Assembly (NCBI GenBank): GCA_021840275.1
Contig: JAKBYW010000001.1
Location: 1 to 38,007 of the forward strand
DNA length: 38,007 nucleotides
Reading direction: 5' to 3'
Source of the DNA: Chloroflexota bacterium
GTDB taxonomy: Bacteria > Chloroflexota > Anaerolineae > Anaerolineales > Villigracilaceae
Shown: positions 11,961 to 17,307 of the stretch, piece after piece
Layout of the letters: every line of letters begins with the position of its first letter
How positions within the stretch are numbered: the stretch's first letter is position 1
Position numbers and translations under genes: made by a program
Notes under the pieces: generated by a model
Told to the model about the DNA's origin: nothing
The model's database searches: none
The model's input: the letters and a program-made list of their open reading frames with translations, nothing else

Positions 11961-12605
11961 TCATACGGTCTTTGAAGTACTGTGGCTTGAGATTATCGAT
12001 AATAAATGGCTGGTTTCATTCAAAAGGGTCAGCGTGAATTTATTGTCTTCCGCCTCGAACGAATTAATCGCGCAGGTGTCCTGACGAACCCTCCAAAAGC
12101 TGCGGGAATCCATTCCAAGCGTTGAAAGCAGGATCAGGCGATTAAGTGCAGTATGGCTAACCAGAACAATCGTTTGGTCTGGATAACGGGCAATCAAACC
12201 ATCCACACATTTCATGGCCCTTAAGCGCGCCATCTCCAATGCTTCGCCGCCCGGAAAACGGAAGTCGCCCGGCGCATGAAGATAAGCCTGGAACTCTGTT
12301 GGCCAGCGCTGACTCGCTTCATCAGGAGTTAGACCCTGCCATTGACCACAATCCACATCAATCAAGCTTGGTTCAACGCGGACAATCAAATTGAATAAGC
12401 ATGCAGTGGATTCGGCAGTTTGGATGGTGCGCGAGAGCGGTCCCGCGTAGACGGCTTCAGGTTTCCACTGTGATGCGATTCGTACACCAGTCACTTTCGC
12501 TTGAGCAAAGCCGGTTTCATCAGGCGGTATGTCTGCGTGCCCACGGAAGCGCTCCTCACGATTCCAGGCAGTCTGGCCGTGTCTCACCAGGATAATCCTT
12601 GTCAT
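11961..12605 (-). CDS. Histidine phosphatase family protein (phosphoglycerate mutase-like)
   Basis: N-terminal RHGQTAWN motif, the ERFRGH segment and a second catalytic His (VSHTA). Confidence 0.85.
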   Translation of the reverse strand: MTRIILVRHGQTAWNREERFRGHADIPPDETGFAQAKVTGVRIASQWKPEAVYAGPLSRTIQTAESTACLFNLIVRVEPSLIDVDCGQWQGLTPDEASQRWPTEFQAYLHAPGDFRFPGGEALEMARLRAMKCVDGLIARYPDQTIVLVSHTALNRLILLSTLGMDSRSFWRVRQDTCAINSFEAEDNKFTLTLLNETSHLLSIISSHSTSKTV

Positions 12606-12682
12606 TATTCAAGTCCTTTATTTACTCTAGTCTTGAACGAACCAATCATGAATTCGAAGATCGTTTGAAAGTGGAACATTTG

Positions 12683-13435
12683 TTATCTTTTCTTGATAAT
12701 ATTTTCATCGTAATAGGCAAGCATATCTTCCGGGCTGCCGTGATTAATGATGATTCCCTGATCCATCACAATAACACGATTGCATAGATTTTTGATTTGT
12801 TCAGGATTGTGCGAAACTATGATGACTATTTCCGACTCTTCGACCAGTTGGTGGATACGCTGAGAACTCTTCTGCACAAAGTATGCATCACCGGTCGCAA
12901 AAACTTCATCAATCAGCAGGATTTCCGGCTCTATCATGATGGCAATCGAGAAAGACAGCCGCCCGAACATTCCTGTTGAATAGTATTTTACAGGCAGGTC
13001 AAGAAACTCCTCCAGTTCCGAAAATTCGGCTATGGCTTTTTCTTTTACCTTCATTTGGGCTGGAGAGTATCCCAACAGGGCGCCATACAAATAGATATTT
13101 TCCCGCCCGGTTTGTTCAGGGTCAAATCCTGCACCGAGTTCCATCAAAGGGGTGACGTGCCCGGCAACCACGACTCGCCCGTATTGGGGAGCATAAATTC
13201 CGGCGATGGTTTTTAGTAATGTTGATTTCCCCGACCCATTCAAACCAATGACACCCAAACGATCTCCCGGATATACTGAAAGAGAGATGTTATTTAATGC
13301 GCAGAACTCTGTAAAACCATCCCGGTTGTTCCTGCCCATGAACCAGTTGATCAGCGCTTCTTTGAGGGATGGAATGGGATTATGGTAGATTCGAAATTTG
13401 ACAGAGACATCCTGCATCTGAATAGATATTTTCAT
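12683..13435 (-). CDS. ABC transporter ATP-binding protein, Wzt/TagH/KpsT polysaccharide-export type (no cognate permease nearby)
   Basis: GLNGSGKST Walker A, YSTGMFGRLSF signature and LLIDEVF Walker B. I prefer the start MKISIQ at 13435. The ORF track starts at 13486. Confidence 0.85.
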   Translation of the reverse strand: MKISIQMQDVSVKFRIYHNPIPSLKEALINWFMGRNNRDGFTEFCALNNISLSVYPGDRLGVIGLNGSGKSTLLKTIAGIYAPQYGRVVVAGHVTPLMELGAGFDPEQTGRENIYLYGALLGYSPAQMKVKEKAIAEFSELEEFLDLPVKYYSTGMFGRLSFSIAIMIEPEILLIDEVFATGDAYFVQKSSQRIHQLVEESEIVIIVSHNPEQIKNLCNRVIVMDQGIIINHGSPEDMLAYYDENIIKKR

Positions 13436-13542
13436 AATTTGTGGAGTACGCCCGATATAACAAATGAGTTCACAAATAATCAACAAACCTTAAGCTGGCA
13501 TTGACTCTCGTAAATTTGTTATCCGAGTTGATAGCTGGTTTT

Positions 13543-14469
13543 CTATTTATCATCAGATTGTTTCGGACTTGACCAAAGGCTCTCCACATCCAAGGCTTTA
13601 TCGTTTTCCATCATCACCTGGCGGTCCAGCGCAACCGAATTTCTCGCCAGATGGATGCAGATATTGCGCCATTCCCTGTTTGACCGGCTTTCAACCGTTT
13701 CAACCACCTTCCGCAGGCAGAGGGTAATTACCCAGCCATATGATGGGCCACCGACCTTCTCTTCCTCGATCAGAATGACAGCTTTGTCGGTCAATGCCAA
13801 CAGGGATGATGGAGCAATGGGACGATTGAAAAAATGCAGGAGGGGTTGTTTGATGCGAGGTTGGTAAACATACCCCAGCAAACGTTCGCCACGTTGCAAT
13901 GCGTAATGCCTTAAGCCGTTCATGAATTTGAAGGACTCAGTTTCCAATTTTTGCAGCAGAGCATCATTCTGTTCCCGAATGGATGCAACCGGTTGAGCCA
14001 TGCCATAAGTCAAGTACAGGAATTGGGTCAACATTATTTCCACGAGATGTTGTCCAACGGTATTGTATTCAATAACAATGTGCACAAGCCTGCCGTTAAC
14101 TTCCCCTGCCAGTTCCAGGCGGTTATAGAGCAACACAAGTGTGTAATGCACGTATAGAAGCGACTCGCCATGAAGATAGGTTGCGGTGGGAGGCTGACCA
14201 TCCCGAATATGCAAAATCCCTTGGGCTGTGGATAGAAGTGCCTGCCGCGGCACGCCGCGCCTTCCCAGAAATGGCTGTGGCGGGAGCATCAGGATAGAAG
14301 TGATTGGCTCCACAGGCTTCAATAATGGCTGTGCTGCCTGTTGAAAACGCTCTGGCAGATCCTTTAGGTCTGACACTTCGTAGGGAAACTGACTTTCTCT
14401 ATCGGCCATAAGGGATTGTGTTTTTGGATATTCAACAGCCACTCCCGCTTTGGGAGTGGCTTCGATCAA
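13543..14469 (-). CDS. Hypothetical protein with two PH-like repeats; distant paralog of 782-2206
   Basis: LPERFQQAAQPLLKPVEPITSILMLP resembles LPHRFQHYVSEYLAPDERILYAARRP of ORF 782. GERLLGYVYQP...LLALTDKAVILIEEE...YGW resembles PDERILYAARRP...VLILTSQRLIQLTE...YGF. The start is TTG at 14469, and the first ATG is at 14409. Confidence 0.7.
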   Translation of the reverse strand: MIEATPKAGVAVEYPKTQSLMADRESQFPYEVSDLKDLPERFQQAAQPLLKPVEPITSILMLPPQPFLGRRGVPRQALLSTAQGILHIRDGQPPTATYLHGESLLYVHYTLVLLYNRLELAGEVNGRLVHIVIEYNTVGQHLVEIMLTQFLYLTYGMAQPVASIREQNDALLQKLETESFKFMNGLRHYALQRGERLLGYVYQPRIKQPLLHFFNRPIAPSSLLALTDKAVILIEEEKVGGPSYGWVITLCLRKVVETVESRSNREWRNICIHLARNSVALDRQVMMENDKALDVESLWSSPKQSDDK

Positions 14470-15765: not shown

Positions 15766-15794
15766 TTGTTAGTCTCCAAATTAGTGATTTACAT

Positions 15795-16022
15795 TTACAG
15801 GCTTTGTGGGCCTATGATGTTTTCAAGAAGAAAACCGATAACGAAAGACAATACAATAAAGAATACCAACGTAACCAGGGCCGCCTCTGTCGCCAGCTTT
15901 ACGGGTTTCCTTTTATCCGGATAATGATGTGAGTATTCGCCATATGTAATAAGAAACGCCATGACAGACGCCAGAGGCGAAAAGACCAGACTGATCACAA
16001 CAGAAACCGCAACAAATTTCAT
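15795..16022 (-). CDS. Small 2-TM membrane protein, unknown function
   Basis: 75 aa with two hydrophobic helices flanking YPDKRKPVK. It is tightly packed between the MFS gene and eno on the same strand. Confidence 0.5.
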   Translation of the reverse strand: MKFVAVSVVISLVFSPLASVMAFLITYGEYSHHYPDKRKPVKLATEAALVTLVFFIVLSFVIGFLLENIIGPQSL

Positions 16023-16092
16023 GGCTGGGCTGGTTCTTGAATCCGTAAGCTATCTGGGGTTGGATGAGCATTGATAGGCGTGAGGAAATATA

Positions 16093-17307
16093 TCATTCAG
16101 TTTCTTTCTTTACTGGAAGTCGCCGGGTTTGCTTGGCTACGATGAAGAATAAAGGCACGGCGGCCAGTTGCGCAACGACCGAGAAGATTATCAGTGCTGG
16201 CAGCGAGATGCCGTACAGAAGCCCAATCACCGCGCTGCCCAGAAACCAGAAGATACCGTAGCCTGCTGTGAACAATCCGTATGCGGAAGCGCGGCGCTCG
16301 GGTGCAACCATCGGCGCTACTGCCGCGGGAATAATGGATTCATGCACTCCCATGCCCAAACCCCAGATCGCCATCCCAATAAGCGCGGTCCAAAAACCGC
16401 CCAGGAAAACCAACGGCGCAAAGAGTGCGGCGATGATTGTCAAAACAATCAGGATGGAAAAACCAAAACGGTCATAAAGCCGTCCGAATACCAGCGAACC
16501 AGCCCCGCTCACGCCCATCGCCACAGCATAAAATACCGGAATAACGTCCAGTGAAACAATGGAGGCTTGCGCGAAATGGTAGGCAATCAGCGGAAAATCC
16601 GCGAAGCCTGCCGCGACCAGTGCCGCGCCCACCAGATACAGCCAAAAGACGCGCGGCAGTCCACGCGGTTGAACATTCGGGACGTTTGTCTCCATTTCTT
16701 CAGGGTGCGGATAAGTTCGGTAGGCCAACAGGAGCAAGCTAAAGTTAATGACTGCGGGCACGGCCAGTGCCGCGAAGGCGAGATGATAATCGCCACGCAT
16801 CGCCAAGACCCACGCGACCACCAGGGGTCCAAACAGGGCGCCAAATTGATCCAGCGCTTCGTGCAAGCCAAATACCCATCCAATGCCGAGCTGTTTACCA
16901 GCATGTGATAGCATCACATCGCGTGGTGGATTGCGTGTGGCTTTTCCCACGCGTTCGAGAATAATCAGTACCGCCGCCATCGGCCAATTCCCCGCTAAAG
17001 CCAGCAGTGGTACAGATGCCATCTGGACGGCATAGCCAATAATCGTGATGGGCCAGAATTTCTGGGTGCGGTCAGCGAGTCGTCCCGAGACAAGCCGCAG
17101 GCCATAGCCCAGCAACTCTCCAAAGCCTGTCACAAGGCCGACAACGAAAGCACTCGCCTGCAAATGTGCGAGATAAGGACCAATAATGCTACGAGAGCCT
17201 TCGTATGTAAAATCAGCGAAGAAACTCAGGATACCAATCAAGAGTACAAACTTGAAGGCCATCTGTTGCACAGTGGTTTGTTCGGAAACCGCCGAATTAT
17301 TTTTCAT
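16093..17307 (-). CDS. MFS transporter
   Basis: 404 aa with ~12 hydrophobic segments and MFS motif A (GRLADRTQKF). AGGAG RBS. Confidence 0.85.
   Translation of the reverse strand: MKNNSAVSEQTTVQQMAFKFVLLIGILSFFADFTYEGSRSIIGPYLAHLQASAFVVGLVTGFGELLGYGLRLVSGRLADRTQKFWPITIIGYAVQMASVPLLALAGNWPMAAVLIILERVGKATRNPPRDVMLSHAGKQLGIGWVFGLHEALDQFGALFGPLVVAWVLAMRGDYHLAFAALAVPAVINFSLLLLAYRTYPHPEEMETNVPNVQPRGLPRVFWLYLVGAALVAAGFADFPLIAYHFAQASIVSLDVIPVFYAVAMGVSGAGSLVFGRLYDRFGFSILIVLTIIAALFAPLVFLGGFWTALIGMAIWGLGMGVHESIIPAAVAPMVAPERRASAYGLFTAGYGIFWFLGSAVIGLLYGISLPALIIFSVVAQLAAVPLFFIVAKQTRRLPVKKETE

Follow-up and report, generated by a model that had tools for sequence, protein, structure and literature searches.

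The window analysed here is the whole 38,007-nucleotide stretch of DNA from a Chloroflexota bacterium (GenBank assembly GCA_021840275.1, contig JAKBYW010000001.1). Between positions 11961 and 17307 of its minus strand lie six co-oriented genes, which encode a major facilitator superfamily (MFS) transporter, a small membrane protein, an enolase (eno), a protein with a predicted tandem PH-like fold, an ABC ATPase and a histidine phosphatase. The genes follow a leader with the structure of a diverged fluoride riboswitch, and we consider it likely that they are expressed as a single fluoride-inducible transcript, which would provide the cell with an accessory module for metabolic rescue.

The regulons of fluoride riboswitches serve as the principal guide to cellular strategies against fluoride, and fluoride tolerance limits the biodegradation and biosynthesis of organofluorine compounds, including per- and polyfluoroalkyl substances (PMC11139923). 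The present locus and about 45 related loci point to four recurrent uncharacterised members of such regulons: the MFS family, a histidine phosphatase of the PspA/PhoE type, the tandem PH-like protein and a clade of enolases carrying a distinct sequence signature.

Organization of the operon

The six genes and the families assigned to them in an initial annotation of the window were all recovered from the list of open reading frames and by Pfam and NCBIfam scans. The features of the operon, in the direction of transcription, are as follows (aa, amino acids):

17471..17479, minus strand: extended -10 element TGTTATAAT, the putative promoter
17367..17445, minus strand: diverged fluoride aptamer, from the RF01734 match and the leader alignment
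17343..17381, minus strand: expression platform, an intrinsic terminator followed by UUUUUUGUU, from folding and covariation
16093..17307, minus strand: MFS transporter, 404 aa, PF07690 (MFS_1)
15795..16022, minus strand: two-helix membrane protein, 75 aa, an open reading frame common to the window and its closest relative, L037
14485..15765, minus strand: enolase of the fluoride-cluster clade, from TIGR01060 (651 bits) and the signature
13543..14409, minus strand: tandem PH-like protein (predicted fold), 288 aa, unannotated family, from an AlphaFold2 model
12683..13435, minus strand: orphan Wzt/TagH-type ABC nucleotide-binding subunit, from an ABC_tran match; a lineage-specific insertion
11961..12605, minus strand: histidine phosphatase of PspA/PhoE type, 214 aa, PF00300 (His_Phos_1; 1.4e-52)
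11889..11931, minus strand: operon-ending intrinsic terminator, a stem of 7+4 bp followed by U6

The start of the PH-like gene had been placed at TTG 14469; the homologs point to ATG 14409, most likely the true start, which gives a protein of 288 aa matching all of them. The start of the ABC gene at ATG 13435 was confirmed. With the starts refined, the intergenic gaps measure 70, 29, 75, 107 and 77 nucleotides (nt), and the range of 15-78 nt given initially had to be corrected. The proposed boundaries of the operon were borne out, with the promoter element, aptamer and terminator on the upstream side (17479-17343) and a terminator on the downstream side (11931-11889). The latter, a hairpin followed by U6, begins 29 nt past the phosphatase gene (11931-11896 plus U6; -12.8 kcal/mol, z=-2.3).

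The motif TGnTAnAAT occurs six times in the 38-kb window, and three of these sites are located just upstream of the three fluoride aptamers. They precede the Rfam matches by 9 nt (670-678, plus strand), 3 nt (26295-26303, minus strand) and, for the operon described here, 25 nt (17471-17479, minus strand). Given six such sites in 38 kb, this distribution suggests that the fluoride regulon uses -35-independent promoters. A scan of the window found no TGnTAnAAT element on the minus strand inside the operon. No aptamer was detected inside the operon either, a custom covariance model giving just three in the whole window, and folding revealed no significant hairpin in the gaps between the MFS and 75-aa genes and between the ABC and phosphatase genes. 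Scans with consensus sigma-70 and terminator models returned counts at the level of shuffled sequence and missed both real terminators.

A diverged fluoride riboswitch precedes the operon

A scan of the whole window at Rfam gathering scores reported aptamers at 688-749 (plus strand) and 26291-26218 (minus strand) and none upstream of 17307. A permissive search of 6.8 kb yielded a match to RF01734, the fluoride riboswitch or crcB motif (Weinberg 2010, PMC2864571; Baker 2012), at 17445-17367 on the minus strand, with a score of 21.9 bits (E=0.012) against a gathering threshold of 34 bits. We refer to it as aptamer #2.

Aptamer #2 shares with the canonical RF01734 the helices P1 (17441-17433 paired with 17424-17416) and P2 (17399-17396 paired with 17389-17386), the pseudoknot (17430-17425 paired with 17381-17376), the unpaired GAUG and CUGAU segments and an overlapping terminator suited to ON regulation. 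It differs from the canonical form in its score, in a P1 extended to 9 bp and in a P1-P2 linker of about 26 nt, for which the consensus has about 6. All 14 aptamer pairs form in the window sequence, and none of the columns found invariant in 14 fluoride aptamers has changed, the two unpaired segments included. The long P1 and the linker of about 26 nt are also present in the closest relatives (L011, L030, L007 and L037; the L numbers denote the related loci). Leaders preceding orthologous MFS genes scored 31.3 (L028), 34.7 (L034) and 29.9 bits (L035) with RF01734, and TGnTATAAT is kept at the equivalent position in the orthologous leaders.

Seven MFS leaders were aligned with the two other aptamers of the window, giving nine sequences, some of them closely related. 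In this alignment 96% of the cells of P1, P2 and the pseudoknot were paired, with six pairs changing on both sides; for the terminator helix the values were 99% and five pairs. None of 500 shuffles matched the score in either case. When the partners were slid by 1-3 columns as a control, pairing dropped to 29-46% for the aptamer and lay at 29-55% over aptamer and terminator together.

The 5' arm of the terminator (17381-17371) contains the 3' strand of the pseudoknot (17381-17376), and the terminator hairpin (17381-17351 plus a U-tract, U6) folds with -17.3 kcal/mol (z=-4.75). In the 5' strand of the pseudoknot the window carries GAAGCU in place of GAGGCU; this window-specific G to A change is matched by a C to U change in the shared strand (AGCUUC) and by a G to A change in the 3' arm of the terminator (GAAGCU). 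A three-way compensatory change of this kind would not be expected unless selection acts on both alternative structures. The custom covariance model was trained on a set that includes the aptamers of the window, so that its scores for these are not independent evidence.

The leaders, the covariation and the three-way change thus back the initial placement of the operon under a fluoride riboswitch with an overlapping terminator. We conclude that the leader is a transcriptional ON-switch for fluoride, of standard type but in diverged form, and predict that it binds fluoride. Transcription would start at the extended -10 promoter (17479-17471) and, when fluoride is absent, the terminator hairpin would halt the polymerase ahead of the first gene. 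When the Mg-fluoride complex is bound, the pseudoknot would sequester 17381-17376; the hairpin would then be blocked, because the 5' arm of the terminator is held in the pseudoknot, and the polymerase would read through the MFS, 75-aa, eno, PH-like, ABC and phosphatase genes to the terminator at 11931-11889. The example indicates that diverged fluoride aptamers of Chloroflexota can score below the Rfam threshold; surveys relying on gathering scores would therefore undercount the fluoride riboswitches of this phylum.

Gene order and riboswitch linkage in related loci

The proteins of the window were compared by tblastn with 27 loci encoding relatives of the PH-like protein, and about 45 related loci were considered overall. 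The order eno, PH-like gene, phosphatase gene was found in 14 of the 27 (L002, L005-L012, L017, L018, L023, L026 and L027), usually in convergent orientation to a crcB operon that has the same gene content as operon #1 of the window (see below). The MFS gene is followed by eno in L011, L028-L031, L034 and L037. In the closest relative, L037, the gene order is exactly that of the window, with identities of 97.9% for the enolase, 93.8% for the MFS transporter, 90.2% for the phosphatase and 69% for the PH-like protein. The module is likewise present in the closely related assemblies GCA_040961205.1 and GCA_041643075.1. Conservation of gene order, which the initial annotation had named as a check on the operon, is therefore observed.

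MFS contexts were chosen over a range of 73-91% identity (P0053, P0055, P0103, P0115, P0145, P0149 and P0157). The loci examined contained, in order, genes for the MFS transporter, a 144-aa protein, enolase, the PH-like protein, the phosphatase and a DUF6062 protein (L028/L029); MFS, CBS, a 141-aa protein, enolase, HEAT and phosphatase (L030); MFS, a 168-aa protein, enolase and HEAT (L034); a riboswitch, CrcB, DUF190, further genes, NUDIX, MFS and enolase (L031-L033, from a metagenome-assembled genome labelled Burkholderiales); MFS and pyrophosphatase (L035/L036); and a riboswitch, a 149-aa protein, MFS and two MutS-like genes (L039). The MFS gene adjoins a riboswitch-controlled operon of eno and MutS in L040. 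Among cultured organisms, it follows crcB and DUF190 on an Aquicella plasmid, and on a Rubrobacter plasmid lies behind a riboswitch and three hypothetical genes.

Four of the genes were found elsewhere with an aptamer of their own: the PH-like gene in L013 and L016, the phosphatase gene in L016 and L041, eno in L005, L030 and L040, and the MFS gene in L028, L034, L035, L039 and L048. The aptamers located directly upstream of the PH-like gene (L013, L016) and of the phosphatase gene (L016) were each accompanied by a terminator, as found with the custom model and checked by eye. A survey of PH-like homologs for RF01734 linkage, suggested beforehand, thus gave a positive result, and the view that the genes other than eno are not standard members of fluoride regulons fails for the MFS, phosphatase and PH-like genes. 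The MFS transporter, enolase, tandem PH-like protein and histidine phosphatase, each riboswitch-linked somewhere, make up the conserved core of the module.

Three aptamers are located within 2 kb in L030 (9366-9439, 9872-9946 and 11269-11340), before a 79-aa open reading frame, the MFS gene and the genes for CBS, the 141-aa protein and enolase, respectively; the module can therefore split into individually switched units. DUF6062 proteins recur beside the phosphatase or PH-like gene (L028 14598-15299, L030 14613-15356, L034 12721-13485, L021 10866-11609). In L014 (444-578) and L013 (about 314-448) the aptamer of the PH-like gene has a short enolase fragment (residues 102-146, 64% identity) just upstream, which suggests that this lineage has lost a full eno.

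The enolase belongs to a clade found in mobile fluoride clusters

The enolase scored 651 bits with TIGR01060, for which the cut-off is 300, and matched Enolase_N (2e-59) and Enolase_C (4e-123). Its catalytic and metal-binding motifs are all present (PSGASTG, GGVHA, QEF, GDEGG, ALDPA, LEDGL, VGDDL, IKLNQ, SHRSGE and LKTG) and align with those of solved enolases. In yeast numbering, we take the catalytic and metal-binding residues to be S39, H159, E168, E211, D246, E295, D320, K345, H373/R374/S375 and K396.

Canonical enolases of the housekeeping type were defined by a loop 2 of the form GGxHAxNxxD with no insertion, by SGE[TS][ES]D and by GQIKTG. The window enolase has one extra residue in loop 2, SGETVD and GHLKTG. 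These features belong to a signature consisting of NGGVHA[NR]WQ (a one-residue insertion just after the catalytic His of loop 2), SGETVD in the place of SGET[ES]D, GHLKTG in the place of GQIKTG, and RGER[VI]EKYN. The signature is common to all MFS-linked enolases of the metagenomic loci and to the plasmid enolases of Pseudomonas, Massilia and Klebsiella (window 14485-15765, minus strand; L043 6995-8278; L044 3474-4760; L045 4992-6278). None of its elements occurs in the five nearest solved enolases, which have the canonical forms instead. The riboswitch-controlled enolase of L040 also lacks the signature, which therefore does not span every riboswitch-linked enolase.

In a plasmid collection, the window enolase was 73.4% identical to plasmid enolases of Pseudomonas syringae, amygdali, putida and orientalis, 69.5% to that of the Massilia plasmid and 63.7% to the copy widespread on Klebsiella and E. 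coli plasmids. Its identity to the nearest solved relative, the Chloroflexi enzyme of Chloroflexus aurantiacus (4yws), is 62.9%, and to the canonical-type enolase of L040 58%. The plasmid enolases with the signature are by definition second copies, their hosts having a chromosomal eno. The window enolase belongs to this horizontally mobile accessory clade and is at least as close to these copies as to the Chloroflexus enzyme of its own phylum, and for this reason it is almost certainly an accessory copy, which lends indirect support to the initial prediction of a second eno elsewhere in the genome. As such a specialised mobile paralog it would give extra, possibly less fluoride-sensitive, activity.

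That enolase is a recognised member of fluoride regulons, as the initial annotation had it, is supported by the precedent of a riboswitch operon containing eno (PMC5533749). No published description of the signature or of a distinct clade was found in the literature searched, which speaks solely of making more enzyme (PMC5533749; PMC11139923). We put forward, as a tentative idea that may well be wrong, that the fluoride-cluster enolases form a specialised isozyme clade in which remodelled loops (the loop-2 insertion with a Trp after the catalytic His, ETED changed to ETVD and GQIKTG to GHLKTG) lower the inhibition by Mg-fluoride-phosphate, and that the MFS protein is an unrecognised transporter of the fluoride response. 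If true, the cell would switch to a resistant enzyme and not merely make more enzyme. A clade tolerant to fluoride would revise the explanation based on the amount of enolase and would provide an off-the-shelf component for building a glycolysis that resists fluoride; the enolase clade is the most valuable lead of this analysis.

The histidine phosphatase and the tandem PH-like protein

In its translation the phosphatase retains the RHG and SH motifs. The protein misses all dPGM equivalog cut-offs of NCBIfam (best scores 38-54 bits versus 225-366), and its nearest solved structures are a metal-independent phosphoserine phosphatase of Hydrogenobacter (4ij5, 5e-30) and PhoE (1h2e). The Massilia plasmid carries both a dPGM and a PspA/PhoE-type phosphatase, which argues against equivalence of the two types. 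We infer that the window protein transfers phosphoryl groups independently of metal. It could replace a Mg/Mn-dependent enzyme poisoned by metal-fluoride, relieve a build-up of phosphoglycerate by draining it, or supply phosphate, which protects against fluoride (PMC11139923).

About 50 close relatives of the PH-like protein, all labelled hypothetical, were found in metagenomes and metagenome-assembled genomes of the Anaerolineales type, and a profile search extended the family to 588 cluster representatives. Scans of the protein and of ten distant family members with Pfam and NCBIfam gave no match. An AlphaFold2 model of high confidence (pLDDT 89.6) consists of two modules, each with a seven-stranded beta-sandwich and a helix capping it at the C-terminal end. 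Foldseek aligned it with BBS5 (E=1.4e-5) and FACT as tandem-PH proteins and with bacterial single PH domains at target-normalised TM-scores of 0.5-0.6; the whole-chain TM-scores are just 0.25-0.31 and no Pfam PH family is matched. On the model and these comparisons, the label PH-like given initially seems reasonable at the level of the fold. In the neighbourhoods of distant homologs (38% identity; L003, L004 and L019-L022) no fluoride genes were found, with the exception of L021, where the adjoining DUF6062 gene lies directly behind a fluoride aptamer (27 bits). The protein would be a lineage-restricted accessory factor. Short BLAST matches to the 474-aa first gene of operon #1 had raised the possibility of a relationship, which was rejected at an hhalign probability of 2.8%.

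The MFS transporter and the small protein following it

The MFS transporter matches solely PF07690 in Pfam and has thousands of homologs, the best 120 of them at 71-93% identity. It contains neither a CRCB nor a voltage-gated CLC domain, shows no relation in sequence or fold to Fluc or CLC, and has no sequence relative in the PDB. Its structural neighbours (GlpT, G6PT1, MCT1 and NorA among them) are generic hits that do not discriminate, and were rejected as a guide to the substrate. Homologs lie behind aptamers or within fluoride clusters in L028, L034, L035, L031, L039, L041 and L048, and the transporter would be a conserved membrane component of the fluoride response. No link of the MFS family to fluoride riboswitches was found in the literature, the gene list of Baker et al. 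2012 not being covered by the search. A pairing like that of ArsJ, in which an MFS transporter goes with GAPDH, a glycolytic enzyme, was also considered; no ArsJ or organophosphate-antiporter model matched at E<0.01, and the MFS gene also pairs with pyrophosphatase (PPase) or MutS genes in loci with no eno, which argues against such a pairing and leaves it as an analogy.

The 75-aa gene has 13 synonymous and 2 non-synonymous codon changes between the window and L037, 12 of the 15 differences falling at third positions. It is therefore a real gene under purifying selection. No family match was obtained with Pfam or NCBIfam and, among the relatives compared, the protein is restricted to the lineages of the window and L037; it would be a recent addition. 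In most relatives the position directly before the fluoride-cluster enolase is occupied by an unannotated soluble protein of 140-168 aa with pairwise identities of 35-82% (L005 8162-8650, L028 11226-11660, L030 11828-12253, L034 9262-9768, L038 8260-8724), which in the window and L037 is replaced by the unrelated 75-aa membrane protein. Since this slot holds an unrelated protein elsewhere, a conserved exporter pair made of the MFS transporter and the small protein is unlikely.

The ABC ATPase is a lineage-specific passenger

The ABC ATPase carries Walker A, signature, Walker B and H-loop motifs (GLNGSGKST, YSTGM, ILLIDE and VSH) and matches ABC_tran (3e-19). Its best NCBIfam matches are the galactan Wzt and TagH, below the equivalog cut-off (210 versus 400 bits), and no ABC-2 membrane permease is encoded anywhere in the window. 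The initial description of a polysaccharide-export type ATPase lacking a permease was therefore upheld; as a functional puzzle it loses its weight, given what is seen in the relatives. The gene is absent in every relative except L037, the PH-like and phosphatase genes being then 17-60 nt apart. The ortholog in L037 has lost about 330 nt covering the signature, Walker B and H-loop, an inactivating internal deletion that leaves a 126-aa stub and an out-of-frame tail. Of the intact homologs, the nearest (74-75% identity, 250 aa) bear the annotation of polysaccharide/polyol-phosphate ABC ATPases, and the 75%-identical one, in L046, overlaps an ABC2_membrane permease gene. The G+C content of the gene is 44%, versus 53% for the MFS gene and eno; as a sign of foreign origin this is suggestive, not decisive, because crcB and the P-type-ATPase-like gene have similar values. 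By these comparisons the ABC ATPase appears to be a captured half-transporter, dispensable in the sister lineage, and a decaying passenger of this lineage.

Alternative explanations

Several observations weigh against a single fluoride-inducible transcript. Co-transcription of the six genes is deduced from their spacing and from the absence of recognisable internal signals, and the scan for consensus promoters (10 sites versus 7.2 expected) was uninformative. The 107-nt gap between the PH-like and ABC genes (13436-13542) forms a long and imperfect hairpin that lacks a U-tract (-23.6 kcal/mol, z=-2.0) and could lower read-through into the two genes that follow. This hairpin may have been left behind by the ABC insertion, or may be an element of processing or attenuation. 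Aptamer #2 lies below the gathering threshold of Rfam and its P1-P2 linker is unusually long. Also, MFS homologs of 55-57% identity are located in copper/heavy-metal islands with no aptamer (L042, a Nostoc plasmid; L049, a Legionella fallonii plasmid), so that the family is not exclusive to fluoride and may have a broader role in ion stress. The hairpin, together with the recent insertion and low G+C content of the ABC gene and the fact that its flanking gaps (107 and 77 nt) are the longest of the operon, would suit a unit split by the insertion, in which the ABC and phosphatase genes have a transcript of their own or are poorly transcribed. We regard this as quite unlikely: the hairpin lacks a U-tract, the gaps hold no extended -10 element of the local type, and the phosphatase has stayed intact, with 90% identity to that of L037, while the intervening ABC gene decays, a pattern to be expected if the phosphatase gene is still reached by read-through from upstream. 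Neither is it probable that aptamer #2 is a decayed relic that senses no fluoride, in a leader acting as a constitutive attenuator or responding to another signal. Its score lies 12 bits under the gathering value, its linker is some four times the consensus length, and the aptamers of its closest orthologs (L011, L030, L007 and L037) are weak or missed by Rfam; yet all invariant columns are retained, the co-change of pseudoknot and terminator implies selection on both structures, the variant architecture is kept among lineages whose PH-like proteins are just 53-69% identical, and the genes downstream are those of fluoride clusters. These facts make the relic highly improbable.

The purpose of the operon may also be read differently. 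It could be devoted mainly to transport, with the MFS transporter, perhaps aided by the 75-aa protein, exporting fluoride, HF or a related ion as a third type of fluoride exporter and the enzymes as secondary cargo. The MFS gene is the first past the riboswitch, is very highly conserved across phyla (72-93% identity) and sometimes occurs where eno is absent, with PPase in L035, with MutS in L039 and as crcB-DUF190-MFS in Aquicella; moreover, a non-canonical transporter, BenE-I, aids fluoride tolerance in P. putida (PMC13104614). We nevertheless consider a transport operon unlikely. CrcB or CLC is encoded in the same island at all but one of the readable riboswitch-bearing MFS loci, the exception being L035, which has neither over 8 kb on each side, so that an additional fluoride exporter is not obviously needed; the transporter is unrelated to Fluc and CLC and has generic structural neighbours, its homologs also occur in metal-resistance islands, and its 75-aa partner is not conserved. 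The other possibility concerns the enolase, which could be the sole housekeeping copy, expressed at a basal level through a leaky terminator or an internal promoter and boosted by the riboswitch under fluoride. It is full-length, catalytically complete by sequence and above the TIGR01060 equivalog cut-off, its nearest solved relative is from Chloroflexi, and no second eno was found within the 38-kb window. Its signature, however, is that of the Pseudomonas, Massilia and Klebsiella plasmid copies, which are necessarily second copies, and it is nearer to the Pseudomonas plasmid enzyme than to the Chloroflexus enolase. In addition, the gene lies behind a fluoride aptamer in every relative examined, with an aptamer of its own in L030 and L005, and no promoter-like element of the local type was found upstream of eno. 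A housekeeping role is thus very unlikely, and a fluoride-inducible transcript carrying an accessory rescue module remains the preferred reading.

Comparison with characterised fluoride systems

The regulatory logic and the presence of an enolase are already known, and the closest characterised system is the riboswitch operon of E. cloacae FRM. This operon, located on GI3, comprises a riboswitch, ppaC, uspA, eno, gpmA and crcB, as well as a P-type-ATPase fragment; fluoride induces it 10- to 176-fold, and resistance requires it (PMC5533749). A gene of the phosphoglycerate mutase family beside eno is thus already found in an experimentally studied operon (PMC5533749). The Klebsiella plasmid cluster ppaC, usp, eno, gpmA, crcB (L045), with copies on Klebsiella and E. 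coli plasmids, corresponds to the same operon. The window resembles both in having a multi-gene riboswitch operon in which an accessory enolase of the same signature is followed by a gene of the histidine phosphatase superfamily, and it resembles E. cloacae FRM also in the soluble P-type-ATPase-like gene of its island (operon #3). Unlike E. cloacae FRM, the window has crcB and a pyrophosphatase-like gene in a separate, convergent riboswitch operon, a phosphatase of PspA/PhoE type and not a dPGM, no Usp gene, and a core that includes the MFS transporter and the tandem PH-like protein; its host belongs to the Chloroflexota and the cluster is not on a plasmid. The distinguishing features of the window system are therefore the diverged aptamer, the conserved MFS and tandem PH-like members, the PspA/PhoE-type phosphatase and the signature-bearing enolase clade.

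On a Massilia forsythiae plasmid (NZ_CP051686.1, L044), as in the window, the signature enolase is followed by a histidine phosphatase, of 208 aa and 37% identity; the pair adjoins a riboswitch, CLC, DUF190 and crcB, and no aptamer was detected upstream of eno itself. A Pseudomonas syringae plasmid (NZ_LT963405.1, L043) also carries the signature enolase, in the order riboswitch, further genes, DUF190, eno, ppa. Unlike the window, neither plasmid locus has the MFS transporter or the PH-like protein. A conjugative plasmid of Burkholderia cenocepacia (NZ_CP073707.1, L041) shares with the window homologs of the MFS transporter (57%) and the histidine phosphatase (34%), but has neither enolase nor PH-like protein, and its MFS gene is located downstream of the CLC gene and is not the first after the aptamer. 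This locus (120144-134199), from a blood isolate, contains five fluoride aptamers of 49-58 bits within 14 kb, which control crcB, CLC, histidine phosphatase, MFS and MutS-like genes.

The surrounding fluoride island

The operon shares a fluoride island, in a Chloroflexota genome of the Anaerolineales type, with two further riboswitch operons, and comparison with the related loci indicates that this three-operon island is conserved in Anaerolineales. Riboswitch #1 (41 bits) precedes six genes on the plus strand (688-7432), which encode a protein of 474 aa whose N-terminal part weakly matches pyrophosphatase, a protein with HEAT repeats, two paralogs of MutS_V, CrcB and a DUF190+CBS protein. Many relatives (L006, L007, L010, L030 and L037) have kept this operon #1, in convergent orientation to the phosphatase gene.

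Riboswitch #3 (37 bits) precedes three genes on the minus strand (26291-21222). The first encodes a 565-aa soluble P-type-ATPase-like protein with actuator and HAD domains and, by Pfam, no membrane part; the others encode a 578-aa dynamin-family GTPase with a DUF6062-like C-terminal tail and an M20 peptidase. All three genes are conserved together in L006, L030 and L037, and in L007 an aptamer separates the dynamin gene from the M20 gene.

An M-box magnesium riboswitch (122 bits) and the gene for a P-type ATPase of the MgtA type (7758-11145, plus strand) lie between the crcB operon and the phosphatase gene. This Mg2+ importer module is a lineage-specific insertion, since the crcB operon and the phosphatase gene are directly convergent in L037, L006 and L010. 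Its insertion into a fluoride island deserves mention, as fluoride sequesters Mg2+.

The island is embedded in metal-resistance genes (17760-20538, minus strand; 27921-30348, minus strand; 35116-37455, plus strand), which encode a membrane protein with a zinc ribbon, the chromate transporter ChrA, a small protein with a metal-binding domain, DsbD_2, an ArsR regulator accompanied by an HMA P-type ATPase, and another HMA P-type ATPase. The same neighbourhood of ChrA, DsbD_2 and FixH is present upstream of the MFS gene in L037.

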